This document shows positions 11,859 through 43,284 of a DNA stretch of 64,000 nucleotides, in pieces. The stretch comes from Tubulanus polymorphus. Lineage: Eukaryota > Animalia > Nemertea. Position 1 is the first letter of the stretch. Each line of letters starts with the position of its first letter. The stretch covers positions 14,230,485-14,294,484 of the forward strand of contig NC_134027.1 in the NCBI RefSeq assembly GCF_964204645.1, given 5' to 3'. The notes under the pieces are model-generated. The model saw only the letters and a program-made list of their open reading frames with translations, ran no database searches and was not told where the DNA came from. Made by a program: the position numbers and the translations under genes.

Positions 11859-11874
11859 TTTTTTTGCTAAATAA

Positions 11875-16342: not shown

Positions 16343-16378
16343 AATTTTTACTTTAATAAAAATATATATATATAATAA

Positions 16379-16954: not shown

Positions 16955-17619
16955 GGACCAAACACTGTAAATGAAATATTAGGAGCAAACACTAATAAAG
17001 ATAATAATGAAAATACAGGAAAGCGCATTGATAATAAAGATTATATGAAACTTAAATCAGAAGATAAAGATATAGTTGATATGACTAATAAGTATATCAA
17101 TAAACCAATTATTTATGAAGATACGGTAAAAAGGGTGAAGAATAAGTACAAAAATAATAAAGAATTTGAAGAAGAAAATTCGGTAGAGAATTTGAATAGA
17201 TTGTTAGGGTCTGATGATGAATTGGAGAGTGATGATGAAAGTGATTCAGAAAGTGATTATCTAACACTCAAAAAGTAATAAACGTTGAAAATTGTATAAA
17301 ATAATAGTAAATAAAAAAGGGGGGTTTAAGTATTAAGGTATCTAATACGTATCTAATACGTATCTAATACGTATTTAATACGTATTATTTGAAAATACCT
17401 TAAATTATATTTTTTTTAAATTTATATTAGAAACCTCAGTAATAATAAATAACCTTTATTATTTTCAAACTTATTCATATATTAGTTGAAAAAAATAAAA
17501 ATAAATTGGTTGAAAATTGTATGAATTATATTTATTTTAAAAAAGGGGGTTTTAAGTATTAATGTATTTAATACGTGTTTAATACGTATTTAATACGTAT
17601 TAGATAGATATATAAATAG

Positions 17620-18228
17620 TTATTTTATAAATTTATATTCATATGGAAATTGTAATCTCAGTAATAATTTTGAACCTTCATTATTCTTTAATTTATTCAT
17701 ATATTCATCATGTAATTCAGTAGGTATAATTTGATTTTCTTCCAATGATTGTTGCATAGATTTTTTATCTTTGTTATAAAATAAAACTAGAAATCTTATA
17801 TTCTCCCTAAAGTCTTTAACAATTGAATTATATTTTTGATTTTAAACCCATGTTATCCCAAAATGTCTCCCAGAGAAAGCTAGATAACATAACTCACTTT
17901 CTCTAACTTTTGAATCATGTAAATTTGCGCAATCATCTATAATGAATAATGTATTTGATCCTTTATAAGTATCAATTGCTATTTTAATACAATTATCTAA
18001 ATTTTCTTTTACTGTTTTAGGATTTAATATAATAAACTTTTTTATCTTAACTATGTCTCTATTATATGTTTTATTCATTTCATAAGTAGGACAAAATAAT
18101 ATTATATTATCAAAATAATTCTTATAAATAGTTTCTAACAAATCTAATATGAAATGTGTTTTACCACAGTTTGTTACACCAGTAACTAACATATTATGCG
18201 GTTCACATATAAATAAATCTTTATTCGT
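17620..18228 (-). pseudogene. A32/FtsK-like DNA packaging ATPase
   Basis: Walker A GVTNCGKT, Walker B FIIDD, SGRH motif; in-frame TAA at 17842 then NQKYNSIVKDFREN; probable start mutated ATG>ACG at 18228. Confidence 0.9.
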
Positions 18229-19333
18229 TTATTCTTTTAATTTTACTAGATAAAATCCATTCATTAAATTTATCACCATGTCCTTTATATTTCACCAAAG
18301 AATACTTTTTTCCTTTAAGAGTTTTTGTTTTCAATACTTTTTCTATTTTGTATTCTATTTCATCTGGATTTGGTACAAGTGATAATTCTTGTTCATAGAA
18401 ATAACCTAATATTTCTTCATCTTTTAAATCTTCTAATTTATAAACAAATGGTTTAGTTAATATTATCTTTTTAATCTTGAATATTTCTTCAGTAAAATTT
18501 GGAGTATAACCTTTATAAAATGTTTTTCTATATTTAGATATTCTAACATGTTGTCCAATTTTAAATTTTGGTTCTCCGAAATCAGGTGTAACAAACACAC
18601 CATACAAATTATTCCAAACTATTTCTGAATTATCTTCTTTTCTAGCTTGTATAGGTTTCATATTTATAGAACTATGTTTAGAATTATTATAACCTTTCAC
18701 TAAATCATCTAACACATCGATATATTTATATGTTTCATTAGCAGTAAAATATTTCCACATTCTAGTTTTCAATGTTTTATTAAACCTTTCTATAATAGAT
18801 GCTTTTTTATCTGAGTGTGTTGAAAAATATTTTACATCGTTATCAGATAATAGTTTTTAAAAATGTTTGTTATAAAATTCCTTACCTTCATCAAATTGTA
18901 TCTTATCTGGAATAGCTTCTTTAAATATAGATTTAAAAGCATTTGTCACTTCTATTCCAGTTTTATTTTTGATTGGAATTGACCATGCGTATCTACTGAA
19001 TATGTCTATAACATTCAGTATCCAGAAATATCCTTTGTTGTATTCCTCTAAGTTCTTCATGTCAATTAAATCTGCTTGCCATTGTTGATCGATATATGAA
19101 ACCATAACTTTTCTTGTTAAATAAGTTTTATCCATTTTCCTGTGGATTTGATATGTTGGTTGATTTTGTAACCATGATTTCAATTCACTATATTTTATAT
19201 CACCGTGTGGGTGCCGTACGGCACCATTTTCATTATCAGATTTAATTATATTCCATAATTCTGAAACGTTAGAATATGATACTTCACTTTCTGGGTTATA
19301 ATATAAATCTCTTAAATATTGTTCTTTTTTCAT
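18221..19333 (-). pseudogene. Retroviral-like (rve) integrase with C-terminal chromodomain
   Basis: WQADL, IDIFSRYAW, QFDEGKEF, IIERFNKTLK (DDE); chromodomain YKIEKVL...LVKYKGHGDKFNEWI; single in-frame TAA at 18857. Confidence 0.93.
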
Positions 19334-19339
19334 CTTCTT

Positions 19340-19708
19340 TTAATCCATTAATAATAATCTTGGGTTATTTTCAATGGTTTTAGGATTTGACTTATTTTCT
19401 GGTATGATAGGTTTATTGTCATTGGAATCATATTTATCATCAGATTTGAATTTTGATTTATATATTACACCAGATAATATAATAACTGTTACTAATCCAA
19501 TTGTAATATATAATTTATAATTACTTCCAGCATTAGAAGAATTAGATGGATTATTATTTGAATCAATATAAGATAAAGTCTGTGATTCATTTATATCAGT
19601 TAATTTCTTTTTCTTAGCTTTTTTTAATTCTGAAGATCTTTTACCTAATTCTCTTGCCCATTTGATTTGTTTCTTGGATCTAGCCTTTTTCTTAACGCTA
19701 TCACTCAT
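19340..19708 (-). CDS. Basic N-terminus plus single-TM Polinton protein
   Basis: 122 aa intact ORF, TAAATG start overlapping the upstream stop. Confidence 0.6.
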   Translation of the reverse strand: MSDSVKKKARSKKQIKWARELGKRSSELKKAKKKKLTDINESQTLSYIDSNNNPSNSSNAGSNYKLYITIGLVTVIILSGVIYKSKFKSDDKYDSNDNKPIIPENKSNPKTIENNPRLLLMD

Positions 19709-20303
19709 TTATTTTAGTTAATTTTTGTTCTGAATCATTTTCTGTTTCGACGTTTGGTTGTAGTACATCTGTTTCATTCTTACCTGAATTATATTCCATA
19801 GGCTTGATGTTCGAAAATGTTATGACGCCAGTAGAAATTAATGTCATAACCGATCCTAATTGAAATGAAGCATAACCAACCCATTTTTGTAATTCAGTCA
19901 TAACTAAATAGTCATTTTTCGAATCACTATATAATTTATTTTCATCATCAATTGGTATTAACTGGTTACATAACTTAGAATAACATTTGACAATACCATC
20001 TGAAATAGAATCATTTATTCGGGCTAATCTTGCCTCTTCATAAATCTTAAAATATTTTATTACTTTATCTGGTTTCATAGCATCTAGTTCTTGATAAGTT
20101 AAAATTTTTCCCAAGAAACCCTTAGATTTCCCGCCAGCAATTAATAATTGAAGATGATGCTTACAATATAAATAGTTTTCATAATCAATATTACAATTAA
20201 CTTGAGCACAATTAGTTACAACTGTATCTTTATTATCACTTATACCCAAATCATCTAATGTCTTTTCAATATCAATACTATTCTTACTCGATTTCTTTGA
20301 CAT
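19701..20303 (-). CDS. Polinton hypothetical helical protein
   Basis: 200 aa intact ORF with TAAATG start. Confidence 0.6.
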   Translation of the reverse strand: MSKKSSKNSIDIEKTLDDLGISDNKDTVVTNCAQVNCNIDYENYLYCKHHLQLLIAGGKSKGFLGKILTYQELDAMKPDKVIKYFKIYEEARLARINDSISDGIVKCYSKLCNQLIPIDDENKLYSDSKNDYLVMTELQKWVGYASFQLGSVMTLISTGVITFSNIKPMEYNSGKNETDVLQPNVETENDSEQKLTKINE

Positions 20304-20639
20304 TTATATTAGAGAAAAAAGCGAAAAAAAATATAAGTATTATAAAATGATACCAGTATCTCTTTAGATTAATACTAGCTTAGTTAAAGGTAAAGAATTT
20401 TAGTATTAGTTATTGTTTTTTTAGTATTTTTTATTTGTGATATAAAGTATTCTCTTTTGAAAAGAATTGTAAAAGAAAATATCAAAAATTAAAATAGAAA
20501 TAATGGCTAGCTGAAGTTATTGTTTTTTTAATATATTTTATTTGAATTCTATTTGATATCACCACGTGGGTGCTGTACGGCACCATCTCACTACTTTTGT
20601 TTATCTATTAGGAGCAGTAATTATAACTGTCCAGATAAG

Positions 20640-21110
20640 TTATTTCGGATCCTTGATATCAAATTCCTCAACATATTGTTCATTATTTGGATCATTGTTC
20701 CATTGATCAATAAATTTCTTTGCCTTTGTTAACTGTTCTAAATATAACTGTAAATCTAGTTTATTAGATTTGATTTGATTTTCTTTCTTTTCTAAAGGCC
20801 TTAAATTTTTCCAACCCCAAATAAGTTTTTTATTGTATTCAACATTCATGTTAAATTTAGATATTTGTAACACGTGATCAATATGGTAATAATCCCCATA
20901 ATTATCTTATTCATTTTATCATCGAATTGAAATATAATCCATGATTTGAGAAATTCATCTGAACAACCCAATAGATTAGATAGTGTTTCTGAATGTGTTT
21001 CTTTGTTGAATAATTGTGTTAATCTAGATCTTAAGCATTGTTTCAATCTAAAATTAAGATCTGTTTCATATCTTTCTCTCATATATTCTGTCACATAATC
21101 ATTATAAGCT
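20640..21110 (-). pseudogene. HNH-type endonuclease resembling those of large DNA viruses, frameshifted and 5'-truncated
   Basis: Joined reading: DLNFRLKQCLRSRL...LLGCSDEFLKSWIIFQFDDKM / NYGDYYHIDHVLQISKF...WKNLRPLEKKENQIKSNK. Confidence 0.7.
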
Positions 21111-21149
21111 TCTCTATTATCTTCTCGATATTGTTACAATACCCGCGTC

Positions 21150-21485
21150 AGATGCGGACATACAGGCGCGCTTTTGCTTAATGCACATGTGTTAATCATA
21201 ATTATATATTCATTCTATAAATTCTGAAAAATAGAAACAACACATGCGTTACATGCGTCACATGCGGCCATTTATGGCCGGTTTTGCTTAATGCGCATGC
21301 GTTAATCATAATTATATATTCATTATGCAAATTCTGTAAAATAGAAACAACTGAACATAGAAAATTCAAACGCATTCATGTCCTCGTCACATGCGTTACA
21401 TGCGTCACATGCGGCCATTTATGTCCGGTTTTGCTTAATGCGCATGCGTTAATCATAATAGAAACGACTGAACATAAAAATTCAC
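21150..21485. repeat. Three degenerate direct repeats (~110-150 bp) inside Polinton
   Basis: Core CATGCGTCACATGCGGCCATTTATG.CCGGTTTTGCTTAATGCGCATGCGTTAATCATAAT repeated. Confidence 0.85.
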
Positions 21486-22196
21486 CATTCAGATTTACAC
21501 AATACATTATACAAGTTGTTCAGTCGTTTCTTCCAATACATCATTTGATTTCTATAAATACAATTTATAATTACAAACATTTTTTCAATTGCTGGTAAAT
21601 ATTTAACTACATCATCAAATGTTAAACTTAATCATTGGAGTCCTAACGTTTTTGAAATTCTTATATAGTTTCTTCGTCGATCTTTTGGTGATTCTTGTGT
21701 TTCTTGTGCTAATTTCTATTGGTTCGATATCCATTGCTGTTGATTCCTCAGTCAGAAAGAGTATCTTGAGTTTCTCTATCACTTCTTGATGCGTATGGCG
21801 TTTTATTAATCTAAAAGATATTAGCGGCAACTCTAGCCATCTACAAGATATACTAAATACACTTAAATATATCTAAAGGTTTCATATTTAATAGCCCTAA
21901 TAACTACAAAAAACAGTACTTACATTTAGATTTAGAATTGTAAACTATAAACTCCTAATTTCGTTTCGAGAGATAGAATATCCTGAGCGTAATGTTACAG
22001 CGCCTGTTCATTTCCTGCCACGTCATCTGGTTCCGGCACACCTTTCTAGAATTTTCTCTACACGTTTGCATATGTCTCATATGTCTCGGCGTCATAGTAA
22101 CAGCTGTAACAGCTGTGAATTTATAGATTTATTCCATAGCTCTCTACATGGAATGTATATAGGCTCAAATAGAATCATGTTCTAGTATAAACAGCT

Positions 22197-22758
22197 ATGT
22201 ATTATTTCAATCACACTTTACTAACACTTTTAATGTTTAAAAATCTAACTCACACAAATATGAATATTGAAATAATGTTGTAAATATATACTTTTATATT
22301 GAATAATCTGTCAATTTAAATGATATTCATTTACATGAATATTTTAAGAGTAATAGGGGTAATGGGCTTTCAGGTTAAAGGTTGAATGGTCGAGTTCATT
22401 AAAAACAAATATTAAAAGTAATTTAAAACTATAATATATTTTCATAACCGTGTGTATTTCAGTTGAATAATAGACTAATTATTATTATTAAAATATATTT
22501 GATTATATGAATTTGTGTATTGTAAATAAATCAATTGGTCGCGGAGCGGAGCGGTTGCGAAGTGGAGCGACCAATTGATTTAATACAATATGCTTTTAAA
22601 ATTTAAATTATTGATATCTTAGAATAAATATTTAGTTATAATATAAAATGCACACGGTTATGAAAATATATTATAGTTTTAAATTACTTTTAATGTTTTG
22701 TTTTTTAATGCGCTCGACCGTTCGACCTTTGGCTTGAAAGCCTATTACCCCTATTACT
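22197..22758 (-). repeat. Right TIR of Polinton; last 410 bp (22349-22758) form an imperfect palindrome
   Basis: Reverse complement of 5357-5918; inner AGTAATAGGGG at 22349, outer CCCCTATTACT at 22758. Confidence 0.95.
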
Positions 22759-24568: not shown

Positions 24569-27500
24569 CTGCCCTAATTTGACAAAATGCTGTATGTCCG
24601 ACACCCCATATTTTTTCTAATTCAACATTTTTGTTTTTTCCACAGCCATCCTACAATATATGTCAGAGATGTTCACAAATGGGTAAAAATGTGTATATAA
24701 TCATGTATTACCATGTGATAATGGTATCCTATGAAAATAATTTGTTTTTTGTTTTTTTAGAAAAAAATACATACTTCAGTTTGTCAAATTGTTTAAGTCG
24801 ACGCGTTAGATGTCGTCCTGTAGTATGTTTAAGTTACTGCATTTTGTCATAAAAAATTTAAGAGATGCCGCTTTCTGTAAAAGCAGCTATATAAAAATAA
24901 ACTAACAATATGCTTTAAGTTGAAATAAAATAATTTAATTTTAACTTTGAATAATTTCATTTGAACAATTTATCAATGAAAATACAGTATGTAATTTCTA
25001 ATAATTTATGCAGTTATGATTTCGCCAATTTAAACCATTTGAATTTTCACTGAAAAATGATTTCTAACAGTTTAGGCGGTAATTTCTCAAAACAGGGTAC
25101 ATTTCAACAATTTTTTTATTTAATAGTCTGCATCAATTAAGTCGGCCGAATTTTCACTGACAAATAATGATTGCCAAAAACTCCTGCGATTTTCAGGCAT
25201 GATTGGGCAGAGCTTGTCAATAATATCTTGCTTCTTTCTTGAAGGGATACCTCTCGGCTGGGATCGAGCTCGGGAATAAGTCTGCCCTTCAATCATCTTA
25301 GCTGCTATTTTCTTTTTCAAAAACAACCCAGACATGAATTCTTTTGCTTCATACTTCTCTTTCCAATACATGCTTACTGATTCACTTCTGAAACTAACTA
25401 TCTTCACATTTGCCAACAACGGCTTATTTGTATATTTGCCGCTGGATGTCTCATTTTCATACAAAATGAAATCAGCCGGTGACATGATTATACTTTTCCC
25501 ATAATTGTCAATAATTTTGATAAAGTCGTCAAAGTCGTAAACGTTTTTTTGGGATCTCATCCCAGTTTCGACTTTCGAATGAAAGGTATCCACACTCATG
25601 AAAGTATGGCCTTTTTCTAAGTATTTAATAGTTACTGATTCTACATTTGGGTTTACATTTGCCTCCCAACAGAGAGCCGTGTAGAGGGTCCAGTTTTTGT
25701 TTTGAGCCCCACAGTTATCACAGTAAAACTGGAAATGCTTTATATCTCTATGATCTCTAATGACTTTTATAAAGGTGCTAGAGATATCTTCGTCATTACG
25801 ACCACTCACGCCCTCATGCCAGATAATGCCCATGGGCTTAATCTTTGAATAATTTTTCCCTAGAGGTGCAAAGGTTTCATTAAAAACTACTAACCGCCGA
25901 GTAAATATTGCAGTTTTTACCCCTGGTAGTCTGGGTAACATGATTACTTTTTCAAGATCTACTGAGCATACTACTAGAGTGTCCCCATTGAAGGGTACTT
26001 CTGCATCATTTCTATACATTTCACGGGCCTTTCGAGCATTTTCTGTATGTTCCGTCCATTCACTACACAAGCTACAATCATTTGGTGAGACACAAACATG
26101 CTTTTCATGGGCCAAACAGATTTCACATTCTTCTTCGCCCAAAACAGCAAAACTAATCTTCATATCAGCCACGATACGCCTATAAGTGTCGTATGATACT
26201 TGATTGTCAGCATTTTTTATAATGTAATCCTTGTGCATCTCAGTAATGTTTATTTCGTTTGTAAGGTATCTCGTGTGAGGGGCATGTTCCCGCCTGTAGT
26301 GTGAGCAATGGGGATTGAAGGATTCTATGTGATTCTTAATCAATTGCCTTTTTTCATCTGACATTGCATGTTTAGGCGTATGCCTGCCTCTTTTATCGGG
26401 TGGTGGTGAGAATGATTCCATACCTGGAGATAGCTCACTAAGAACACTTGTCAGAATGCGATCTGATGTGTATCCCAGGGTCTTCAGGAAAAAATTCTGG
26501 CAAACCGTTTGGGATGTATTATTCACATCAGGCATGTGGAATTTTCTGTATTGTGTTTTCTTGCCGCCTAGTCGTTTTGTTGGGTATATTTTAACATGGT
26601 TGAAAACCCATGCTCTCCTCCTATCATCTTCCTCCATATCCCAAAACAATTCATGGATAACAGCTCTTCTTGCTTCAGTAAATTTTTCATTACACTTTTC
26701 ACGGGTGCATTTGCACGTTTTCAAAAGTGGATGTTCCGCCTTTAATTTAAGAAATTGATCTCTTTTGCTGAGGCGTTTTCGCTTTTTGGAACCAACAGTT
26801 TTGGCTTGTGGAGATTCATTGTCAGGTTCACCAGTAGCAGCTGCTGGGGGTTGAACTTCATTAGACTCACCGGCAACAGCGACACGTTGCACTTGCAAAT
26901 CTCCGGCAGGCTCATTATTATCAACTCGGTTTTCTGGCTCGGAAATAGAAACTTGGATAACGGGCTCACCAGTTTGGTTGGAATTGCCTATCTGTTCAGT
27001 AGGCCTTTTGGTATTTTCTGTCCATGGTTTTTTCTGTAACTCCGTGTACGTATTATTTCCTGGTGGCGAATAATTGACAATTGTTGGTTTTAAAGGCGCA
27101 GGTTTTGGGGCATCTATCACGCCTTCCTCTCTTAAAGCACTGAAAATCATTGAGAATGACAGCTGAGCCATCTTCCAAGTCCTGTAAAATAAGAGTGAAA
27201 CCTATATAAAAAGCCCTACATAAATGAGCCGATTTTGTACACTTTAGTGTCAAATTATCAGTGTATAACGGCTGTCATTTTATTTTGGTTTTTGAAACAC
27301 AGATCTTACCTTGAAATGTATTGCTCTTGTAAATGAAAGCCTAAAAAATCTTGCCTGTTCTAAAATGCTAGACCTCAAACAAAAAAATCCTTTAATTGCA
27401 ACAATTAAAGCTGTTTGATTTTATAAAAAAAACACTACTTTACTTTTACAAAATGAAGTATGTTGTCAGAAAAAATTGACAAAACGCAGTAAGTCACAAA

Positions 27501-27726: not shown

Positions 27727-29433
27727 AGTAGTGATATTTTTATCTCTTCTTTCTACGAATCGATTGTTGAATTTAGGACATTGCTCGACTGAACGCAACT
27801 GAGGAATTTTTATCGCCTAGTTTGTGCTGTATGTTAAAGAGCATCATATATTGCTTCGAATTCGGCAACACAAGAGCATCATATATAGGCTTTAATACTT
27901 CGAATAGTAACAAGTAACAAGAATATTGCTAGTAACAAGAATATTGCTCAACGGATTTACTTGAAACTTTCGTGAGATGTACGGAACTCAGGTACCTTGA
28001 GGTAAGTCTCAGGGATCTTTGATCTTCGTTCATCCACTAGGGGGTGTTTTACTTTTAAAAATTCTGACATCGAAAAGTTAGAGAAAATTTTTTGTCCTTG
28101 ACTTTCCAGCTTCGGGCGAGCACGAAAGTTGTTCAGGACAGCCCGGAGGCTAAAAAAGTCAATGGCACGCCCTATCTGCGATTAACCGTTTCGGCTCTAC
28201 AGGCTTGAAAATGGGACCCCAAATTTTTCAATGAGATTTTTGCTCCTAGCTCCTTAACCGTTGGAGATAGAATCGTGGTTGCAATGAGTGATCAGTAGCC
28301 CTTGACAAGACGCTTGTATCGATGTATGGTATAACTATGTAACTCATATGGTTCTCCAGTAGCGCCACCTATAAGACGCTGGAAAACGCATTTTCATCTA
28401 TATCGACTAAGAGAATCAATGGATTTCTATAAAAATTCATTCACATGTACCTGGTTACTAAATGCAACGAACCCCTCACATGATTAGTTCCTATTTTAAC
28501 CACTAGGGGGCGTAAATTTTGAAAAGTCATTTCAGCATCCATTTTTCGCATGTAATGCGGTCTGGTTATTATGAAAATCACAAAACTTGGTATAAGTACA
28601 TAGAAATGTGTGTAATATGCCAACCTGCATGATTAGTTCATACAACCTTGGAGTAATCATTTGACTGGAGAGAGCTCGCCTATTCATTCGCTATACACAC
28701 TGTGGCCTATTCATGTAGCACCACTCGCGTCGCTTAACCGGAAGCTTTACTACCAGTATGCGCAGACGGGCTCAATCGAATACGACCTATTTAACGCATG
28801 CGCAGTTGTTACAAATATGTCCGCGCCGTTGTGAAGATTTTATTGCAAAAAGAATTGTCAAAATCGACCGATATTTAAGGAAATTACAGATTTTTACCGC
28901 GCTTATCACAAACAGTACTCAATTGAATGTAAGTGAAAAAGAATTCTTCATCAAATTAAAACCCGATTCTTCCGGATAATGGCACATACATCATATTAAA
29001 GATCGAGAGTTGATGATAATGAAATAGTAAATGTCTGTGTGTTGCGCTTCGTCGCGAAATCAATATTTGTAATGAAAATTCCCTAGTTACTGTGGTGGTA
29101 ATACAATATCCTCACTGATGATAGACTTATCATTTCTGGCCATTGGCGTTGTTGCTTTGCCAGAATCAGATTCAAAACCGCTTTATCTAGTTAATTATAT
29201 TCCTAGTCTATTTGTATCTCTCAACATATTATTATTCACTTACTTTTATCTTTTTTTTTCAGTTAGACTTTTGTTATGATTGCTTGTTTTGTTTGCATGC
29301 GAGTCTGGATGGAGTGTGTCATATGATTTTGAGCTATGGAAGGTTAGCCTATCTTCAATTATTGCAAACATAGGCTTTTCATCATACAATTAACAAATAG
29401 TGTTTTTTAATATGTGCTTTTATATTTTTGTAG

Positions 29434-32422
29434 AGGAACATTCATGCATAGCTTTGTTTTGTCGGATATGTGGCCAAGAACGTGCACTGATCGCCGACGG
29501 AAAAAAACAAATAAACAAGGAAACTCATCAACGAGATATTAACCTAATATGGAAAAGTGATGTGAAAAACAATCCGTCCAGTTATCCTCCGTATTTATGT
29601 AAGTCTTGCGACTCAATAATAAGGCGATGGCGGAAACGAAAAAATTCAAAAAAGAGCCTAATAACGTTACCGTTGAAATTAACGACTGGACCGATGATAA
29701 CGTTACGTGTCATAGCTGCATCCAAAATGTTGACAGTCTTTCCCAGGAATTTCCGGACAGTTTTGTACAGAGATTTAGTGAACTATTTAACCAGAACCAA
29801 TTTTTTGTCAATGTGTCCCAGGAAAAATTAGCGGCGTCTAAAAATGTGAGCCTGAACGATTTGTGTAAATACGTTGAGATAAACAACGATTTTCAGTGTG
29901 CAGTGTGGGTCTATGGTCACGAGATTGACCTCGAGAAGTTTCGAATTCCGAAATGTGTGTCGGCTGATGAAGATTTAATGTTATTTGTGAAACTTGTATC
30001 AAGCTGGAATGTATGCGCTGGAATTGCTGGATTTTCTGATCTATGTCGATTGCGTGCTCCGACTCCAACAGCTGTTTTTACAGATCGAAGTGGTGAGACA
30101 GTTGCCAGAGAAGAAGTTAATCCAGTGCAGTGTATTCGCCATGTCAACTGTGATTATTTTTCCTTAAAGTTATTGTGTGATGCCTGTGAAGGATACAAGT
30201 CGACTCTGAGAAGTCTTAAATCTAAAGCTGAGAAGAAAGTTGAATCCAAACCGACTGCATCATCTCATCATCGAAATGTCCAGAGCAGATTTATTGATGA
30301 AAATGAAAAATGTGCAACAAAATAGACAATTTTGGAAAAAAAGAGCAAAGTCATTATCAGCAAAAATTGAGCAGGAAATTGAAAACAAAGGAGTGAATTT
30401 GAAATCTAAATTAGATAAGTCATTGAGCCAAGTCATCCAAGATAACCCTCCTACACCTGATTCAATTGCTGAATTACTCTGGCAACAGCAAGTGACATAC
30501 AACAGCAAAAGCGAAAAAAGGCAGATGCGCTGGCACCCGTTACTCATCAAATGGTGCATTGCTCTGCAAGCCACATCGAGCAAAGCGTATGATCTTCTCA
30601 GAGACTCAAAAATTCTCGATTTGCCACACAAAACAACCTTGAGAGACTATACACATCACCTAGATACGAAAATCGGATTTTCACAGCAAATCATGGAATT
30701 CATAAAAGCGGACATTTCTTTTGATTGCTTACTAACTACCCTTTGAGAAAAATGTGATCATTGCTTTTGATGAAATAAAAATCAAAGAAGGCCTAGCATA
30801 TTCTTCCGAGACTGGAGAATTAGTCGGATTTGTGAATTTTGGAGACTATTTAAATGAAATTGAGGAGTTAGATTCCGAGAACACTTCACCTGCCCATGCA
30901 ACCCATTGTATATCATTCATGGTTCGTGGTATTTTCAAACATTTGAATAATGTATTTGGATATTTCCCGTGTGTTGGGTTCACCAGTCACCAACTATACG
31001 TTTCAGTGTGGGAAGCCATAAAAATTTTGGAGATTAATGGCTTCCATGTAAGAGGCATTGTATCCGATGGAGCATCAGCTAATAGAAAATTCTATCGAAT
31101 GCATGGTTCGGAAGAATCGCCTGAAAATGATATATTCTTCTCGTCAAACCGATATCGTCCGGGATCGAAAATATACTTTTTCTGTGATGGACCTCATTTA
31201 ATGAAAACAACCCGAAATAATATAGAGAACTCGAATTGGCATAATAAGACAAGGAATTTAGAGGTAAAAATGAATGTAAAATATGTTGGCTTATTGATCT
31301 TCACGTTCATATATTCATATTTTTTCAATTATATTTCGGTACAGTTGAATGGTCTGCCTATTCAGTGGACTCAATTGATCAGATTGGTGGAAGAAGACTT
31401 GGGCATTCAAGTATTTAGAGATGAAAATGGTGATTTTCAGGAAAACAGAAACAATGTTGGCCAGTTGAGGACACTTCCACGACTGGCCGATGAACACTTA
31501 CGTTTAACACCAGGATCTCGTATGGATGTAAAGCTAGCAGCGCAGGTACAAATTCTTAATGAAACTTATCTTATATTTATTTATTTTATGATACTAGTAA
31601 AACTCTCCACGATAAATTATATTTTAGGTGCTCAGTGGCTCTGTTGCTTCAGCCCTAAAACTGAAGATTGATAAAATACATGAATCGATTTTTTGATTGC
31701 TTGAATGTGTCAAATAGTGTTGATAGTATCCGTCAACGCAATAAGTATATTGCACCATTCACAAGAGAAAACCTGGACAGATTAGATGTAAGCATAATCT
31801 CGGAGTCAGTCGTGCATTCAGTTAATAAACTTGGTTGCTAAAGATTGCAAATTTTTTATTTCTCATTTTTTTCAGTGGTTGGAGAATAAATTCATACCAT
31901 TCTTTGAAAATTGGGAAATTCGGTGTCTCCGAAAAGTCGATTTGCCAATCGGATTACGAAGAAGAATGTGTTTAAGTCGAGAAACACTTGAAGGACTGCG
32001 AATAACTGGTAAGTTTCATTGATGGATATCATATTATTTATTACATAAACAATTACACTGTATGTACATATACATAATACATTGTATGGTTTGAAATCAA
32101 AAACTATATGAAATGCTTTGTTACAGTCAAATCCGCTGTCAATTTGATTAAAGAGCTTTTGAACGAAGATGGTGTACAGTACGTATTGACAGCAAAATTT
32201 AATCAGGACCCGTTAGAAATATACTATAGCAAGGAACGTAGATGTGGAGGCTCAAATGATAACCCGTCCGTGAAAGAGTTTCAACAAAATGCAGGAAAAC
32301 TGCTTGTTGTATGTTCCAAGACAATAAAAGGTTCTGCGAGAGGAAACTGCACAATCGTTCAAGAAAATGGCGAATCAGTCATCAATTCAGCACCTATACC
32401 TAGACGAAAATCAACTCATTAA
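29434..32422 (+). pseudogene. P-element/THAP9-like transposase, spliced, several frameshifts
   Basis: RWHPLLIKWC...SKAYDLLR...LPHKTTLRDY, AFDEIKIK, ATHCISFMVRG, VSDGASANRK, CDGPHLMKTTRNN, RMDVKLAAQ|VLS, FFDCLN, NQDPLE...GGSNDNPS; GT-AG introns at 31264-31344, 31546-31627, ~31787-31875 and ~32009-32126. Confidence 0.9.
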
Positions 32423-32433
32423 ATGGTAAAAAT

Positions 32434-34076
32434 TCAATGACACTCATTCTGAGTTTTTAATTTTTTTCTTAAACATTTTTCTCGTTTTTTGGGAGTTTTA
32501 CCATCTTTCTGTGACAGGTACATGTACGCGCGACTGAAAGCATGAAGTCGCACTGTAACCCAGCAGTCAACCACTTTAGCGAACAACGAATCTTTAATTG
32601 AATCACATTCTGTATTTGCCACTAGTAATGACCAGCTTGTTTGTATTGAATCGTCATTCAAAACTGTCTCTTCAACATTTGAACGCAAATCTTGACGAAG
32701 TCTCATAACATTATTTGTCTTTAAGATTGGATTAATAATGGTTTCTAACGTTTCAAAGAACCTGTATGCAGTCGCTGACATCTCGAATAAACCCCCCCTG
32801 TTCACAATTTCTGTCCATTTCTTGGTATATACCATGAAATTTTGTGTACTTGACACTCCCGGAGACACTTTCCATAACTTTAATAAGTTCGTAAATATAT
32901 GTGCACGTTGATTTTTACATTTTCTGTAGTGATTAATCAGCTTGGCACATACATTACTACCCAAATAGTACACAACTTGCTTTTCAGTCTCTGTCAAGGT
33001 CAAATTACCTGCATTTATTTCCAGTGATTGTTTATCATAATTTGTGTACCTTTTTTTCAGAATTTCTTTAAGAAGATTTTCAAGAATTATCTGTATGAGA
33101 AAATGGTCACTACCCATGGAAGGAGTTTCTGATGCTGTTTTGAACCTTTGTATAAAATTCATGGCTGGTGCCCAAGAAGCTACTTCATGAAATTTCGAAA
33201 AGACTGCGATTTCTTTTTTTGGAAACTGTGTTTCATTGTCTCCCGCTGTCACAGCAATCCAAATTTTTTCCAAAAGTTCTGTTAACAATTGATTTAAAGT
33301 GTCTTTATAATTCGGGTTTTCAGTTAATTTTAAAACTGTGGTAGCATTTTCCAAAAGTTCCGAATTATTTATATCCGAGTTAAGAATATCCTTTACAGCA
33401 TCACAAAATAGCTGAATTTTTTCCTGTTGGAGCTCACTCAATGAATATTTTGCCTTGTCTGAAAATGAAATAATATGATGTTAAAATATTATTATTATAT
33501 ACTATATAGAGCAATTAATTATTAATATTAAATTATTATTAATGCAAAAAATAATTATTTTAAATCACCATGCGGGAATACTTACTCTGAAAGTTCTGAG
33601 TTCTTTTTTTCGTTTTTTTTTACTGTTGGAACATTTGATTTCTTCTGAGATTTTACTTGAAGCTCTTTGACTTTGTCATCCTTTATCGAATTTGAGGAGT
33701 CTTTCAGAACAGTGTGTTCAGCAGCTTGCCCTACAAGAAAGAATAAAATATCTGTACTTACAAACGATTATTTCGTGAAGATGATTAGATCCAGATGGAG
33801 AGACAGAAAATTAAGAAATGACCAACCTTTTTTGCAATTGGAACACAGAAAAACTCTGGCGTTCTCTTCCAATCGTTTTTTCAAATTCGGCACACATGGC
33901 ATATGATACCAAACTGTGCTGCAAGCGTGTGATTCACACGCAATGATATCGACCAATTCTTGAGACTGACATGAACAGTAAATTTCAAATAAATTCGAAA
34001 TATCACTGTCTTCAGATTCGGAATTATTCTCAAAATCAGATTGACTAAACCCGTACGCGATGTTATCATTCGCCAT
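32434..34076 (-). CDS. Second transposon gene: N-terminal PHD finger plus helical domain (exons 34076-33827, 33730-33586, 33458-32434)
   Basis: PHD C4HC3: YCSC...IACESHACSTVWYHMPCV...FLCSNC; canonical GT-AG introns; last exon open for 335+ aa. The exon 2/3 join is 1 nt out of phase, probably an indel in the A-runs at 33604-33621. Confidence 0.75.
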
Positions 34077-34856
34077 TTTGTCCAGTGTTATTTACTAGTT
34101 GCTAAGCGCCGAGTTACGCCGAGTGCTGACGGAAATTGCCGAAGTCGAATCCCCGCCCACTGTGTAGCAGGTGCGCGATGATTGACTGCAACTATGATAA
34201 GCTGCGCGAAATGAATAGGCGAGCTCTCTCCAGTCAAATGATTACTCCAAGATACAACTACCACCAGGGGACTGTGAAAACAACGATTTCTGCTCCTAGG
34301 TTCTTAACCGTTGCAAATAGAATCGTTGTTGGTATGTGTGGTTAGTAGCCCTTTACAAGACACTTGTATTGATGTTTGGTTTAAGTAGATAACTCATATG
34401 GTTCTCTAGGAGCGCCACCTAGAAGTTGCTGGAAATGCATTTTCATTGGTAGCTACTAAGCGGATAAAGGGATTTCTATGAAAATTGATATACATGTACC
34501 TGGATATAAGATACAACGAATCCCTAACTAACATAATTAGTTCCTATTCTAACCACTAGGGGTGTTAATGTTGAAAACTCATTCTAGCATCAGTTTTTTC
34601 GATTGTAATTCAGTAGTATGCTAACCGGCAAATTACCGGCCACTTGGGCATGGTGAAAGTACCGCATCTTCGTTATTCTCGGTGTCATTTCCCCTAACCT
34701 TGGTACATTAGAACTTTTCAGTTGTATCCCATGTAGATCAACATAGCCATGTTATCAGCTGACCCCAAGGTGGCGCTCCTTATCCAGCAAGGCATAAACC
34801 CGTTATCGCTGCTTTGCAGCTATATTTATTATTATAATAATTATTATTATTATTAT

Positions 34857-34960
34857 TAGGGTTTCTGCTGCCTTCGCAGAAACCCTATTGTATTCCTGCT
34901 GATTATTATTATTATTAGGGTTTCTGCTGCCTTCGCAGAAACCCTATTGTATTCCTGCTG

Positions 34961-35003
<43 letters not shown>

Positions 35004-36875
35004 TCTTTTTCACACCGGATCTTACTGAAAGGATATAAACAACTGCAACTTACTTTCACTGTCGGTGAAACCATTCTGTATCACAAGTACTACGCTGCAT
35101 AGACAAACACTGTACGTGATATTAATCAGAATTGCACTGTTTACTCACTGTGAGCCTCTAAACATCGAAATTTAAGCCCGATTCAAACAGTATCCATCTA
35201 CGTATGTGTATTGCCTACGTGTCATTCCCACAGCGCGTCAGTGCGTCTGTTTGTGTCAGTGTCCATATAAGCAGTGATAGAGCTGGTGTACTAGATCTGT
35301 AGTTTTTTAGTATCTTTATATATATGTGGCGCACTGAATGGGGTCAGTCTCGAGTGAACGCAACTGAGGAATTTTTGTGCCGCATATACAAGCAATAGCA
35401 TCCTTGCAGTAACTTCGCTGGATAGAGCTAATGAATGCAGCTACGGTATCTATACGCGCGAGCCTGGATGGCTATATTCTGTTAGCATTACAATATTCCT
35501 TGACGGATTTTCTTGAAACTTTTGTGAGATGTACGGATCACAGGTACCTTGAGGTAAGTCGAAGGGATCTTTGATTGGGGACCCCGTTCACCCACCAGGG
35601 GGCGTTTTACTTTTGAAAATTCTGACATCGAAAAGTTACTCTGTGAGAACAATTTTTGTCTTTGAGTTTTCAGCTTCGGCCGAGCACGAAAGTTGTTCAT
35701 AACAGCCTGGAGGCTAAAAAACTCAATGGCACGCCCTATCTGCGATTAACCGTTTGGGCTCTACGGGCTCGAAAATGGGCCCCCAAATTTTTTAATGAGA
35801 TTTTTGCTCCTAGCTCCTTAACCAGTGGAGATAGAATTGTGTTTGCAACGAGTGACCAGTAGCCCTTGCGAAGACGCTTGTATCGATGTATGGTATAACT
35901 ATATAGCTCATATAGTTCGCCAGTAGCGCCACCTATAAGACGCTGGAATACACATTTTCATCTATATCAATTAAGGGTATCAATGGATTTCTATAAAAAT
36001 TGATACACATGTACCTGGTTACTAAACGAAACGAACCCTCATATGATTAGTTCCCATTTTAACAACTAGGGTGCGTAAATTTTGAAAAATCGATTTCAGC
36101 ATCCATTTTTCGCATTTAATGCGGTCTGTTTATTGTGAAAATCACAAAACTTGGTATAAGTACAAAGACATGTGTGTAATATGCCATCCTGCATAGATAG
36201 TTCATACAACTGCCACCAGGGGACTGTGAAAACAACGATTTTTGCTCCTAGGTGCTTAACCGTTGGCGATAGAATCGAGGTTGCAATGTGTGGTTAGCAG
36301 CCCTTTTCAAGATACTTGAAGTGATGTATGGTTTAAGTAGGTAACTTATATGGTTCTTCAGGAGCGCCACCTACAATTTGCTGGAAATACATTTTTATTC
36401 ATATCTACTAAGCGGATAAAGGGATTTCTATGAAAATTGATACACGTATACCTGGATATGAGATACAACTAACCCCTCACATAATAAGTTCCTATTCTAA
36501 CCAGTAGGAGGCGTACATTTCTAAAACTCATTCTAACATCCGTTTCCTTACGTGTAATTCAGTCATTTTATGATACACCTAAACAAAAACCTGGTGTGAG
36601 TACATATACATAAGTATAGTACGCAAACCGCCAAAATTAGTTCATACAACTGCCACTGGGGAATGGTAAAAAATACTGTATCTTCGCTATTCTCGATTTC
36701 CTCTAAACTTGGTACATAAGTACTTTGCGCGTGGTAGCCCTTGTGGGTCAACGTATCCATGTCATAAGTTGACCCCTAGGTGGCGTTCCTTTCGGTGAAA
36801 TGTTTGCATGCACCCTTGTACGACATTGTATCCAGCAAGGCAGAAACCCATTATCGCTGCTTTGCAGCTATATTT
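34857..36875 (+). mobile_element. Family A Helentron-derived element, complete copy with duplicated 5' hairpin and ~440 bp internal tandem units
   Basis: 5' hairpins at 34857 and 34917, (ATT)n, internal units at ~35800-36240 and ~36240-36680, 3' GCAGAAACCCATTATCGCTGCTTTGCAGCTATATTT. Confidence 0.8.
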
Positions 36876-39375
36876 AGGGTTTCTGCTGCCTTCGCAGAAA
36901 CCCTATTGTATTCCTGCTGATTATTATTATTATGATTATTATTATTATATTCTTTTTCACACTGGATCTTACTGAAAGGATAAAAACAACTGCAACTTAC
37001 TTTCACTGTCACCAAACCATTCTGTAACACAAGTACTATGCTGCATTGACAAATACTGTATATAATATTAATCAGAATGCCACTGTTTACTCACTGTGAG
37101 CCTCTAAACATCGAAATTTAAGACCGATTCAAACAGTATCCATCTACGTATGTGTATTGCCTACGTGTCTTATTCCCACAATACTGCAGTACGTGTATTT
37201 GAGTGCGTATCCGTATATGCAGTGATAGAGAGCCCTGTTCTAGATCTGTAGTAAAAAGTATTTTTATCACTCTACGAGTCGATTGTTTTGCCGTTGAAAT
37301 AGGACATTCTCGAGTGAACGCAACTGAGGAATTTTTATAGCCTTGTTTGTGCCGCATATACGTACGTACAAGCAATAGCATCCTTGCAGTAACTTCCCTG
37401 GATAGAGCTAATGAATGCAGCTATCGATACGCAAGAGCCTGGATGACTTTATTCTTCTGCTAGCATTACAATATTCCTTGACGGATTTACTTGAAACTTT
37501 CGTGAGATGTACGGAGCACAGGTACCTTGAGGGATCTTTGATTTGGGACCCCGTTCACCCACCAGGGCGTGTTTTACATTTGAAAATTATGACATCGAAA
37601 AGTTACTGTGAGAAAATTTTTTGTCTTTGACTTTTCAGCTTCGGGCGAGCACGAAATTTGTTCAGGCTAAAAAAGTGAATGGCACGCCCTATCTACGATT
37701 AACCGTTTGGGCTCTACGAGCTCGAAAATGGGCCCCCAAATTTTTTAATGAGACTTTTGCTCCTAGCTCCTTAACTGTTGGAGATAGAATCGTGGTTGCG
37801 ACGAGTGATCAGTAGCCCTTGCGAAGACGCTTTTATTGATGTATGGTATAACTATATTACTCATATGGTTCTCCAGTAGCGCCACCTATAAGACGCTGGA
37901 ATACGCATTTTCATCTATATCGACTAAGGGTAGTAATGGATTTCTTTAAAAATTGATACACATGTACCTGGTTACTAAACAAAACGAACCCCTTATATGA
38001 TTAGTTCCCATTTTAACCACTAGGGGGCGTAAATTTTGAAAAATCGATTTCAGAATCCATTTTTCGCATTTAATGCGGTCTGTTTATTATGAAAATCACA
38101 AAACTTGGTATAAGTACAAAGACATGTGTAATATGCCATCCTGCATAATTAGTTCATACAACTGCCACCAGGGGACCTTGAAAACAATGATTTTTGCTCT
38201 TAGGTCCTTAACCGTTGGCGATAGAATCGAGGTTGCAATGTGCGCATAGTAGCCCTTTTCAAGATACTTGTATTTATGTATGGTTTAAGTAGGTAACTCA
38301 TATTGTTCTCCAGGAGCGCCACCTACATTTTGCTGGAAATGCATTTTCATTGATAGCTACTAAGCGGATGAAGGGATTTCTATAAAATTGATATACATGT
38401 ACCTGGATATAAGATACAACGAATCCCTAACATAATTAGTTCCTATTCTAAACACCTAAGCAGTAGTGTTACTTTTATCTGTTCTACAAGTCGATTGTTT
38501 TGCCATTGAATTGGGACATTGCTCGACTGGATGCAAATGAGGAAATACTCCGCGTGTTTTTTCACGAATCATCGTTACAAAAGCACCGTCAGGACGTAAA
38601 CATCGAAAATTTAGCCCCATTCAATGGGGCGACATGTTTCTCGAATCGTCATCCCGTAATCAACCCGCAGGCCGATTGTCACTTCGATTATCAATTCAAG
38701 TATAAATGAACTAATTTATTGCCGCAGACTTCACATTCAGCCGCGGTCTTCAAACAGTAAATTCTAACAATAGCCCATTTTCCTCATCAAATCATACTAC
38801 GAATCGACTTGTGTCACTACATCATTGTTCCGGGGATCAGCTGTGAGTTTCTCCTCATCATGAGAATCAAATCGAGTACAAATTAATTTATTACTACCAC
38901 TGATTTGGCTGCAGGCTTCAAGGAGTTAGTTTAACAATACCTATTTTTCTTTACCAAATTAACCGTGTATTTACTAAGATAAATCTTTAGTGTATCATAA
39001 GTCGTAGGCCTAAACTAAACACGCCGAAGTCGTAGGCCTAAACTAAACACGCCGAAGAGATATAGCGGAGAAAAGCTGTTGTGTCGACGAGGTATCAAAA
39101 TAAAAGAACATATTACTGTATTCATCAGCGGGCTTCAACCTCTATATCAATACCATCAATACTCTATATTTCCTACAGTGCATACCGATCATTGTCAAAT
39201 GCACAAGGTATTTTCTAAATACAAGTATATAACACACTCCTATCCGTATGCTGGACTCACACTTGTCATTCGGAGTAAGCGTTTGCTGTGGGGCAAAGGA
39301 GATCGTTCGCTGTGACGGTTGAAGTGTTTATCGAGTTTTACGCAACCTTAAGGCTTTAGGCCTACCGGTACTGAG

Positions 39376-40476
39376 CTGTGTTGTCATATCGCGGAAAGAC
39401 GGAATCGCGGAATTTTCCAAAAACGCGGAATTTCTTCATAAACGGGTTTTCCCACAGGGATACCCACTGTCGGACAGGGCACCGGACCCAGCTTTTCAAC
39501 ACTGGGAATTAGTATTTGATAATTTATTATATCGCTAGTCAACAATAATGGAGAACCTAGGCAATACGTGCTTTGCGAATTCAGTGATACAGAGTATCGC
39601 TGCATTAACTGAATGAATACAAATCGATGGTACGTAAACGTAGGATTTGTGACACCATGGGTCATTCTCAAGGACTCACTTCCGAGTTAAGATTTGACTC
39701 TGGTCTCTGGATTTAAAACATCGGAAATGAATTGATTCTAAGTGACTCAGAGTTAACTCACAACTGTGGAACTGGATCGATGTCAGACGAAAATAAATAT
39801 ACATTATGTATATTTCATTCTGGTTTAGGATTGTTCATGCGTGTTGTGTGTCTACATTGTTGTTATACGCGAAGAATGTGGTTTATCTTTTAGAATTAAA
39901 TGATATGAAAGATTATAAAATGGTTTCGTTTTTTTAATGTTTACTTTGTGACTGCTATAACATATATGTTCCTATGCTGATTATTTGGATCAAAAGAATC
40001 TTATTCGTACCAGTACTGGACGACCGTAAAATTATAATGATTTCAAAGGAATTGGAACCGGTACTTGTTTGGTCGTAGGATTTCGTGTTTGCAACCATCT
40101 ACAACTACAGTCCGACACCGCGAACGTGCTCAATATTTATCTGATAATATTCGTTTCTGAAGTTCTCAAAAAGTCGATGAACTTCGATAGCCGAAGTTTG
40201 CCTAGTAGAAATAGACATTAGGTGCCTGGTCTCTTTCACCTCACTTGATTCTGACTTCTTCTACAGGTGGCAGCCAGTCAACGGTATCGTAATATAATGA
40301 TTCCATATAAAATTGCCTGCAAATAATGGGATTCGAACCTTAGTCGTTGCATCGATCGGTCCGGTGCCCTGTCCGACAGTGGGTATTAACCCGTTTACTA
40401 TTTAAAGTAAAAATGAAGAAATTCCGCGTTTTTGGAAAATTCCGCGATTCCGTCTTTCCGCGATATGACAACACCG
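39376..40476. mobile_element. Non-autonomous TIR DNA transposon (~1.1 kb)
   Basis: Long TIRs (GTGTTGTCATATCGCGGAAAGACGGAATCGCGGAATTTTCCAAAAACGCGGAATTT...); 9-bp TSD GGTACTGAG, single in the empty site near 62820. Confidence 0.88.
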
Positions 40477-41080
40477 GGTACTGAGCTTTACTCTCTCAAA
40501 CAATCACAGTATGATTGTTGCGTTTATTAACGGACTGATTGGATTGAACTTCAAAACAAAATTTATGATATTTAGGAGGGTTGTTATTCAATAGGCATAT
40601 GACCAATCTGTCCGGATGTTAGGCCTACGCATATACATAGGCTTACATAGGCTAGTAGCCTCTACTAGGTTAAAGCTAAGTTCACTGTATAGGAGGAATC
40701 AGATTTATTAAAATGCATGTTAATTAGTGATTAACTGGTTCTGACTTGCAAGGATCAATCACAATTATAAATATTTCCGTCGAGTACTATACCCTTTCCT
40801 ATGGTTTTTGCCAATATTTTCTAAATTTGGATTGATCGCCAATGGTTTTTCTATACGACCCCGCCCTGCGGTATTGCATTTTTTTTCTTGGCGTTCTCGC
40901 AGTAGAACGCGCTGGATTTTTTCGCCGTAAAAAATCTGGGAATTAGGATATTAGGGAGTTTTCACTCTCATAACGGTGAGTCCGTTCGGTTTGGGGGTTA
41001 TCCCTGGTTTCTATTTTTCCGTAAGAATTTTATTTACAAATAAAATTTGATTGAATTGAATTGATTTGTGACAGGATAAT

Positions 41081-43284
41081 TATGCCACCCCCTCCTAAGG
41101 GTCAACATCGTGGCGGGGAGGGATGCGGGCATTTGTTTGGCGCCTGGGACAACCACGATTCGTGTGCGTCGTGCAGCATAATATGTGCAAGGAGCAATCC
41201 TTGCAATATTTGCGAGGTGTGGTCCGAGGCTTCGGGCCGATAAGGCTCTTAAACTAAGAGATCGTCGTCGAGTTAGTAGGGATTCGTCGGTTTCGGCCAA
41301 CCGACGTTTCTAATCCTGTTTCTTATCGTAAAGCGGAGTGGTCGCCGGTCGTTCTGGTACGATCGGCTTCCCAACTCCTTCACCGGGGAGGAACGCTGGT
41401 TCACCGGCACCGGCCTCCGGTCATTCACCGGTCTCTGGTCGTTCACCGGTTCGGCCAGTTTGGCCGGTTCAGACTACATGTTCGAAACCGAGCGCGCGCC
41501 GCGGTAGTCGGGAACGGCCCACACCGGGTCCGGGTCGGGCATCGGTCCGGTTCGGTCCGGTTCAAGGCACCGGTCCGGTCCAGACGTCGTCCGGTTCAAA
41601 ACATCCGGTACGTTCATCGTCTGATTCTGAACGTCGCTCCGGGGATAGAGCTCGCTCTCCCACTAGATCTAGACGCCGTGAGCTTAATAAACGAGCAAGA
41701 TCTCCTTCTCGCAGATCAAGGTTTGATCGCGAGAGGGACTACGATCGTTATTGTCGGAAGTTTCGCCGTCGGTCTTCTCATCGTTCGTCGACGTCGGTTA
41801 GCGATGAAGGCGATTCTTCTAGTAGGTCTCGATCCCGTTCGAGGGACCGTCACCGAAGTCGGCATGATCGTCGGGATACTGGAAAATTCCTGACTCAGAA
41901 GGATTTCCATGTATTTGAAGAGAAAATTTTAAACTTGTTATCTTCGTCGCAACAGGTTGCTGCAACCTCTACAACAGGTAAGCCTATTCCTGATTGTCCG
42001 GTTAGAAGTTCGCCAGCCCACTCAGTTCTTCGGAATTCTGACTCTGAATTCCTGGATGCTGCGGTAGGGTCTGATTTCAATGAGGATCCGGTCCCAGAAG
42101 CGGCAATTCCTTCTGGGGTCGTTCCTGTCGCGAGCAATTGTGGGTTGCCCCAGACGATGGGGGCTTCCCTGGCTCGCCATGTATCTCCGTCCCGTTCAGT
42201 TTTATCCGAACCAGCGGGGGACATGCCATTTAGAGCGATGATAAGTGAGTTCTTTGTCAAGCACGGGGCAACTTGCGCTAAGCCCACAGCAGCTCCTCTG
42301 GTCGGTGAGTCAATGGAAGCTTATCGCCCTCCGGACTCCGATCTTAACGTTTTACGGGAATCGTCAGCAGTTTCGAGAGAATGGGCTCGATTGGATACGC
42401 AATTATGGGGTGAATGTCGGCCTGGAACATTTTCATTTCCCCCTCCAGAACGGGGTATGAAATCTGGGAAATATTTTAGTTCAACCGATCCACCTATAGG
42501 CGCATTTCGCTCGGCGTATTACGCAACTCCAGGTGCTGTGGATCACAGTCATAACTGCCTGGATGCTGATTATACTTTGATCAGCCCGGATACTGTTACA
42601 GCACAGTCGGGTATTCGTTTGCCTAAGTCCGGTTTGGTGGCCATGACGTTAATCCTGGACAATCTTACCAGAGTTGGTTCGTTTCAAGATATGGCACTTA
42701 AGGTGTTGACGGGTGAGCTTCGCGAGACTCACGCCGCCGTTCATGCGGGCTCGGACCCAGAGTCAGTTGCCCTAAAACTGGAGGGAATGGACCAGATTAT
42801 CCAATCTTTGGCTCGGTCTGTTTCGCATGTAATTCCGTTGTCGGTTCGGGGTCAGGCTAATCTTATGTTAGCCTCCCGTCAGTCAGTGATGGACTCCAGT
42901 TCCAAAACTCGTCTACCGAATATGGTGTCCAATGCTTTGCTGAGAGCCCCATTGGGGACGTCTTCACGTCTCTTCTCCAGTTGGTGCGCTCCCGTTTCCG
43001 CAGAGCTGAGGAAGATTCAGGAGGTTCAGGCCAATTCCAACTCCCGAACTCCGTGGAAAAAGCGTTCTGGTCCGACGCCGGCGGCGCAAGGTTCGGCACG
43101 GACGCAAACAGGACCATCTCAAACTTCAGCGCTTTCTCAGGCGGCTTCGGATGCCGGTTGGAGAACTAGCGCGCAACTTCAACAATCGTGTCAAGCCTCG
43201 CCCAGTCGTAATAGTTCCGGTTCGTATCGAGGCAAGGGGAAGGCTCCAAAAAGGGGCTCTTCCTTTCGGAAAAACTCGAAATGA
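41081..43284 (+). pseudogene. DIRS gag-like ORF1 (Cys-rich N-terminus, SR-rich region)
   Basis: CGH...DNHDSCASC...CARSNPCNIC zinc module followed, after a frameshift, by the 648 aa SR-rich ORF. Confidence 0.75.

Follow-up and report, generated by a model that had tools for sequence, protein, structure and literature searches.

A P-superfamily transposon of Tubulanus polymorphus with its predicted C-terminal transposase domain on a separate, convergent gene

Introduction

In teaching, P elements figure as transposons with a single gene, and the C-terminal domain (CTD) of their transposase is known from one structure. Here we describe a P-superfamily element of the nemertean Tubulanus polymorphus in which the transposase stops short and the CTD, as predicted from a structural model, lies on a second, convergent gene, referred to as ORF2 (open reading frame 2). 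The element occupies positions 28647-34251 (5,605 bp) of a 64,000-nucleotide stretch (NCBI RefSeq assembly GCF_964204645.1, contig NC_134027.1, positions 14,230,485 to 14,294,484 of the forward strand), hereafter the window. An earlier note, made from the sequence alone, had proposed that the P CTD was split off as a subunit fused to a PHD finger, in parallel to RAG1/RAG2.

The closest described systems are the Drosophila P element (87-kDa transposase, PDB 6P5A/6PE2) and THAP9. In passages of the report on the Drosophila strand-transfer complex (PMC7776569), the CTD is joined to the RNase H domain by a flexible, disordered linker, lies between the RNase H and GTP-binding domains, packs on another subunit's GTP-binding domain, and holds both transposon and target DNA through many contacts. 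The window element shares with P and THAP9 a helix-turn-helix (HTH) domain, a split RNase H domain with DDE and D(2)H, an insertion domain, an all-helical CTD fold (here predicted), terminal inverted repeats (TIRs) with a target-site duplication (TSD), and a spliced gene. It differs in that the CTD is placed on a separate gene of the opposite strand, which also encodes an additional helical domain of 146 aa and, optionally, a finger, and in that a zf-AD-like domain was found where P has THAP; its TSD is 7 bp, whereas that of P is 8 bp, and its TIR is 42 bp long and starts with CT. With a D(2)H DDE transposase, TIRs, a 7-bp TSD and an element-encoded helical CTD (predicted, on a separate gene), it belongs to the P superfamily, but it departs from P and THAP9, in which one polypeptide carries the CTD in cis.

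The TSD of the superfamily is given as 7 or 8 bp, and as 7 bp for 1360 and Galileo, in part of PMC3698922. 1360/Hoppel and Galileo share the 7-bp TSD and the P-type transposase with the window element; both are described as intronless, whereas the window element has introns and two genes, and Galileo, unlike it, has long foldback TIRs.

Two convergent genes within TIRs are also the layout of RAGL/ProtoRAG transposons, whose partner protein can carry a PHD finger. As set out in passages of PMC7204232, RAGL elements have a Transib-derived RAG1L, a 5-bp TSD and CAC termini, and RAG2L is a six-bladed kelch propeller with a distinct PHD; RAG2 is in this account an unrelated kelch-plus-PHD protein, whereas the window ORF2 would be a detached piece of the transposase itself. 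Membership in RAGL was ruled out by the P-type Pfam matches, the 7-bp TSD, the CTT termini, the all-helical partner and the ING-like PHD. In Kolobok elements the TSD is TTAA. Portions of PMC9587614 give RR..YY termini for Kolobok Kol0 and a ballast-fold protein as KolX; CT..AG termini, the 7-bp TSD and a partner matching the P CTD ruled out that the window element belongs there. A second element-encoded protein likewise occurs in Kolobok Kol0 (KolX), MuDR (MURB), PIF/Harbinger and CACTA, and interaction of accessory protein and transposase is reported for the latter three in sections of PMC12973397; none of these partners is described, in the portions of these sources that we draw on, as a domain that has separated from the element's own transposase. 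A search by title and abstract start found no paper on a two-gene P element; Repbase and survey supplements, which lay outside that search, could describe the layout.

Results

A TIR-bounded element with two convergent genes

The left TIR (28647..28688, + strand, starting CTTGGAG) and the right TIR (34210..34251, - strand) are each 42 nt long and 100% complementary, so that the termini read CT..AG, with CTT at the tips. Outside them lies the 7-bp sequence ATACAAC, at 28640..28646 and 34252..34258. The element is inserted within one unit of a ~1.95-kb tandem host repeat; three empty copies of this repeat in the same window hold ATACAAC once, and 304 raw reads (145+159) of the DNA run X5 joined position 28639 to 34252 with 7 letters shared. 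Because the empty copies carry ATACAAC once and X5 reads span the empty site, the duplication was taken to be a true TSD, which bears out the element boundaries of the earlier note.

The transposase gene lies on the + strand. An intron at 29342..29433 (joint 29340-29432, GT..AG) precedes the first clear coding exon; the joint comes from run X2, which was read as RNA, as inferred from its splice joints. The large exon (29434..31263) encodes a zf-AD-like zinc domain, a linker domain, the P-type HTH and the first RNase H half, with catalytic positions D 30769, D 31066 and D(2)H 31186-31197. Three insertion-domain exons (31345-31545, 31628-31787 and 31876-32008; span 31345..32008) follow at the position expected for the P type, and the last exon (32127..32422) carries the catalytic E of QDPLE (32216), a GNC motif, a basic tail and the stop. 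Pfam matches at or above cut-off were obtained for PF12017 (P HTH, E 5e-5), PF21787 (RNase H N part, E 1e-19) and PF21789 (C part, E 1e-8), the first RNase H exon piece matched 6p5a_A (E 0.0043), and the first clear coding exon matched zf-AD at a level under the cut-off (E 5e-5). D111, D151 and H154 were invariant in alignment A4, as was QDPLE in alignment A5. No THAP domain matched in the transposase pieces scanned, the region 28689-29433 having been scanned in part.

Contigs of X2 skip four + strand GT..AG introns, namely that upstream of the zinc-domain exon (~29342-29433) and those at 31264-31344, 31546-31627 and 32009-32126; the intron at 31788-31875 was assigned from GT..AG and homology. 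None of the X2 joints of these introns, nor that of ORF2 intron 2, was found in a read of X5. The transposase stops 72 aa from the Q of QDPLE and 51 aa after NDNP, and no CTD comes after; the earlier note was right that the protein ends soon after the catalytic motif, but had put the distance at about 40 aa.

ORF2 runs on the - strand and meets the transposase tail-to-tail, with 11 bp between the transposase stop (ending at 32422) and its own (32434); coordinates and X2 joints agree with the spliced, convergent pair first reported. Exon 1 (33827..34076) begins with an ATG and encodes an acidic N-terminus and an ING-type PHD finger (33834-33977). It is followed by a predicted GT..AG intron 1 (33731..33826), retained in one X2 contig, by exon 2 with a lysine-rich linker (33586..33730), by intron 2 (33459..33585), which is spliced in X2 (joint 33458-33586, CT..AC), and by exon 3 (33458-32434), encoding the remainder of the protein. 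Within exon 3, a helical N-domain recognised family-wide in alignments, with FH and Q motifs (33025..33458; model pLDDT 84, a predicted confidence score), precedes the predicted P-type CTD with its YYLGS, NRGGLF and WVTVR motifs (32503..33003; model residues 154-320), after which a basic LRKKL tail extends to the stop. The ORF2 motifs that had been quoted all fall within frame 33480-32434.

The window copy is disabled, as neither gene can give a full protein; these frameshifts were absent from the earlier note. In the transposase, frame changes occur near 29640-29660, at 30260-30330, at 30731, where 4 bases are missing in X1, X3 and X5 and kept in X2, and at 31662, where the window has 29 nt fewer than run X1. 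The exons of ORF2 are one base out of frame, with a 1-nt excess between exons 2 and 3; in the A-run at 33613 the window has one base more than X3, X4 and one X5 read, and X1 and X2 have two fewer.

ORF2 is predicted to hold the missing C-terminal domain

An AlphaFold2 model of ORF2 exon 3, built on 31 sequences, was all-helical (pLDDT 81). When the model was compared with 48,161 PDB representative chains, the top match was 6p5a_B, with Z 11.1 and a root-mean-square deviation of 2.8, a score to be read with the caution attached to the fold tool that all-helical proteins can reach Z under ~13 by common arrangement. The match aligned 118/118 residues of the Drosophila P transposase (617-734) to model residues 154-320; the runner-up reached Z 8.1 over 76 residues, and 6p5a_B was again first in a second comparison. 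We regard the match as credible because the target was named beforehand and the whole domain is covered. The first 146 residues of the model form a separate helical domain (pLDDT 84), which on its own gave a best Z of 6.5 and no match of 8 or above among the same chains. The Pfam family PF12596 matched 5/50 ORF2 homologs (E 9e-4 to 0.02, all under cut-off) and 1/15 family members (E 0.08). It is well supported by the model that ORF2 carries a P-type CTD split off from the transposase, in line with the central claim of the earlier note.

The gene pair recurs in diverged relatives

When metagenome contigs were searched with the ORF2 alignment, 17 loci (L001-L017) were obtained. A convergent transposase was found downstream in ten of them by tblastn with window-only queries (L001-L007, L009, L011 and L017; the match in L001 is weak, HTH E 5e-4), and a profile search added L010 and L016, bringing the count to 12/17; the transposase profiles were built partly from these loci, L010 and L016 not being among them. 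Intact transposase tails ended 74-76 aa from QDPLE in L002-L007 and L017, as compared with 72 in the window, and were of the type GN-x-R...P-K-R-K-R, with 70-108 bp between the two stops; the tails of L010 and L011 were damaged. The reverse scan, with the transposase tail, gave two loci, L018 and L019. The former, recovered via its transposase, is a complete 5.2-kb element (L018:2363-7595); its perfect TIRs measure 50 bp, its TSD 7 bp, and it has both genes. L018 and L019 sit in records titled bacterial or archaeal metagenome-assembled genomes, and are likely mis-binned eukaryote DNA because their genes are intron-split. In L009, past the P transposase, there are pieces of a further long gene that is transposase-like (L009:4800-8100, -).

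Out of 1.84 billion, the ORF2 profile matched 704 protein clusters at E<=1e-30 and 5,904 at 1e-3, and the best 150 of the 5,904 were all 136-493 aa long. ORF2 proteins found beside short transposases share a pairwise identity of only ~22-42%, with core motifs invariant. Identities of transposase and ORF2 correlated with rho 0.63 over 21 non-independent pairs of partial sequences, a value that we do not take to prove co-evolution. A search for longer, fused forms (777-2215 aa) gave 1 match among 7,995 scored, forms of 600-776 aa being covered only by a separate search; this match, P0005, combines Pao retroelement domains with an ORF2-like tail, apparently through the merging of gene models. Viral contigs held no relatives detectable with A5 or A3. 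Co-occurrence of both genes in 12/17 loci and in the complete L018 supports the pairing as a family trait and ORF2 as something other than a one-off captured gene.

The N-terminal finger varies between lineages

The PHD of ORF2 has the ING-like spacing C-x1-C-x10-C-x4-C-x5-H-x2-C-x16-C-x2-C (Cys4-His-Cys3 core), and its best PDB matches were of the ING family (Png2, E 5e-6; Yng1; ING1; ING4). A Tyr and a Trp of the ING3 PHD are critical for H3K4me3 binding according to passages of PMC5000080; ORF2 keeps both at the 23-residue spacing of ING3 (Y33, W56). A search of the ESM Atlas with protein P0001 returned PHD clusters only, at scores <=0.78. That the finger is joined to the rest of ORF2 is predicted by the gene model and supported by a homolog from the crinoid Antedon mediterranea. 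This homolog has the same order of parts (acidic N-terminus, PHD, basic linker, helical domain, CTD), and two near-identical copies of it lie on two large contigs.

The PHD pattern was found in none of the 19 loci (L001-L019), and L018 and L003, both bounded by TIRs, leave no space for a PHD exon between terminal repeat and ORF2. It was found in 1 of the best 150 of the 5,904 homologs, the Antedon protein, a count that is a lower bound, as an upstream PHD exon would escape gene calls made on single exons. In the lancelet Branchiostoma belcheri, one homolog starts with an acidic stretch, and its slot for the PHD is taken by a C2H2 finger. In a quick tree of 50 rows, of which 40 were a random draw from 65 full-length matches and 10 were chosen, the window ORF2 and the Antedon and Branchiostoma homologs fell in one 5-row clade with a branch support (SH-aLRT) of 100, within which the two PHD proteins grouped together on long branches (SH-aLRT 93). 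By sequence pattern, the N-terminal slot is variable, holding a PHD in the window and the crinoid, a C2H2 finger in the lancelet and nothing in L003 and L018. These comparisons support the PHD as an optional, lineage-specific add-on that would lie outside the core mechanism, and the notion that it defines the system was not supported.

Transcripts, copies and the rest of the window

A likely 3'-UTR (untranslated region) intron of the transposase transcript was seen at 32426..33060 (+, 635 nt, GT..AG) in one X2 contig and in 0 reads of X5. From this one contig, which does not prove a single molecule, the transposase transcript likely reads on antisense into ORF2 for at least 640 nt. A sense-antisense overlap of both transcripts is likely over 32426-33458, and could feed small-RNA control.

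No second copy of the element interior was found in the window. The existence of other copies or alleles of the element is indicated by X5 reads at 90-99% identity and, at both termini, by loose ends with mixed flanks. An internally deleted sibling, in which 29375 is joined to 32594 and most of the transposase is gone, was seen in X1, X3, X4 and one X5 read. Palindromes of ~35-60 bp, in which the first 15-21 bases of the left TIR (28647-28667) are joined to the last 16-20 of the right (34232-34251) with 0-19 letters between the halves, occurred in many reads and contigs, and one of them reaches a contig depth of 662 in X2. Such palindromes could represent either minimal derivatives of the non-autonomous kind or short repeats related to the element.

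Elsewhere in the window, a broken Polinton/Maverick-like element (5359-22756; 560-bp TIRs at 98%) contains polymerase-like frames in fragments, an ORF resembling a capsid gene (Pfam E 0.017) and parts of an integrase (rve E 1e-7). A 693-aa open frame at 25120-27201 (-), with DUF7869 at E 2e-6 and a weak BEN match, is likely another transposase-related gene. The host repeat of ~1.95 kb lies at 34843-38455, with a GGGTTTCTGC hairpin and TAT microsatellites and at high copy number in the reads, and presumably resembles Helentron-associated repeats. A GC-rich retroelement (40790-46754) with overlapping frames like reverse transcriptase/RNase H and like a recombinase, and with 92-bp inverted ends, sits inside large inverted arms (38543-40659 / 62361-63673); it appears DIRS-like by reading, two scanned frames having given no Pfam match.

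Discussion

The window element is a disabled copy of a P-superfamily transposon, quite probably one whose working transposase is formed by a catalytic protein and the trans-encoded CTD of its convergent gene. A break in a linker as flexible and disordered as that of the Drosophila protein would be structurally tolerable, and it is there that these transposases stop. We reasoned that the short transposase would bind ORF2 in trans to give a complete enzyme, in which the family-wide helical N-domain would dock on the catalytic subunit, replacing the lost covalent linker, and the CTD of ORF2 would provide contacts to transposon and target DNA, by analogy with Drosophila. In the window element, the PHD probably recognises H3K4-methylated nucleosomes, and could bias the site at which the complex acts.

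Several results weigh against this reading, in addition to the caution on Z values given above. Identity between ORF2 and 6p5a_B is 16%; Foldseek returned 0 matches for the ORF2 model at E<=0.001, so that the structural check put forward in the earlier note came back blank by this route and gave 6p5a_B in the PDB fold comparison; searches of PDB sequences with profiles A1 and A3 missed the P transposase, and PF12596 had no match in the window ORF2. Five of the 17 loci lack a transposase match, each with ~450 nt or less downstream, and two pairs of loci are near-duplicates (L002/L003 and L005/L007). L019 has a short transposase and no ORF2 within 1.4 kb downstream, where retroelement-like frames were seen by reading alone. 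The window copy itself can encode neither full protein. As to the finger, intron 1, which would join the PHD exon to the rest, is unspliced in the sole X2 contig that covers it, two of the four positions of the ING Tyr/Ser/Met/Trp cage are altered in the ORF2 PHD, with Ile for Met and Glu for Ser, and in the crinoid PHD the Tyr is missing.

Were ORF2 instead a CTD-derived regulator, which might repress by competition for transposon ends or exert antisense control, the short transposase would act alone. Drosophila P does yield a truncated repressor by alternative splicing (PMC7776569). The many DNA contacts of the CTD in the solved complex make its outright loss hard to square with activity. 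The X2 contig that implies an antisense transcript of at least 640 nt would allow the two RNAs to pair; ORF2 has nevertheless been retained beside short transposases at ~22-42% identity with its core motifs invariant, and we consider a purely regulatory role unlikely.

Slightly less probable still is an obligate two-subunit, PHD-guided transposase paralleling RAG1/RAG2, in which histone reading is integral. The convergent genes within TIRs, the ING-type PHD with its Tyr and Trp, and the second PHD-bearing homolog, which stands on two Antedon contigs and groups with the window ORF2, are what such an enzyme would present. The relatives speak otherwise: L018 and L003 have neither a PHD nor room for one, a single PHD was seen in the best 150 homologs, and Branchiostoma has C2H2 in the same slot. 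ORF2 has no kelch domain, its model is all-helical, and its PHD spacing is unlike the RAG2L pattern; the element lies in a tandem repeat unit, with no sign of promoter targeting at this one site. Of the parallel originally drawn with RAG1/RAG2, the convergent layout stands, but the likeness of the partners does not, RAG2 being unrelated and the PHD here being of ING type.

That the PHD exon was picked up as cargo or forms a small gene of its own, unjoined to the CTD protein in this family, is very improbable, since, against the retention of intron 1 in the X2 contig, this intron is canonical GT..AG and in phase, has +1 and -2 indels in different copies as non-coding DNA would, and the Antedon protein shows the same domain order; the N-terminal PHD of the earlier note is present in exon 1, and its splicing to the rest is the part that the X2 contig does not bear out.

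Returning to a transposase completed in trans by the CTD of ORF2, a broader and more tentative proposal, which we hold as a possibility rather than an expectation, is that the pair represents a widespread, undescribed branch of the P superfamily with an obligate two-subunit transposase. The detached CTD would then serve as a plug-in targeting module that gained an ING-type PHD or a C2H2 finger by lineage, and fission rather than capture would have been an independent route to a RAG1/RAG2-like design, in which a catalytic subunit works with a partner that reads chromatin.

A natural split of the CTD, kept across hundreds of diverged protein clusters, offers a direct test of the role of this domain and of the change from a linker to an interface. 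Two-gene control of a transposase is suggested, which is attractive for split or retargetable tools, and many unnamed helical database proteins of ~330 aa appear to be transposon subunits. If it is true that the N-terminal finger steers insertion, the family would provide a second, independent cut-and-paste enzyme with a chromatin-reading subunit, comparable to the evolution of RAG.

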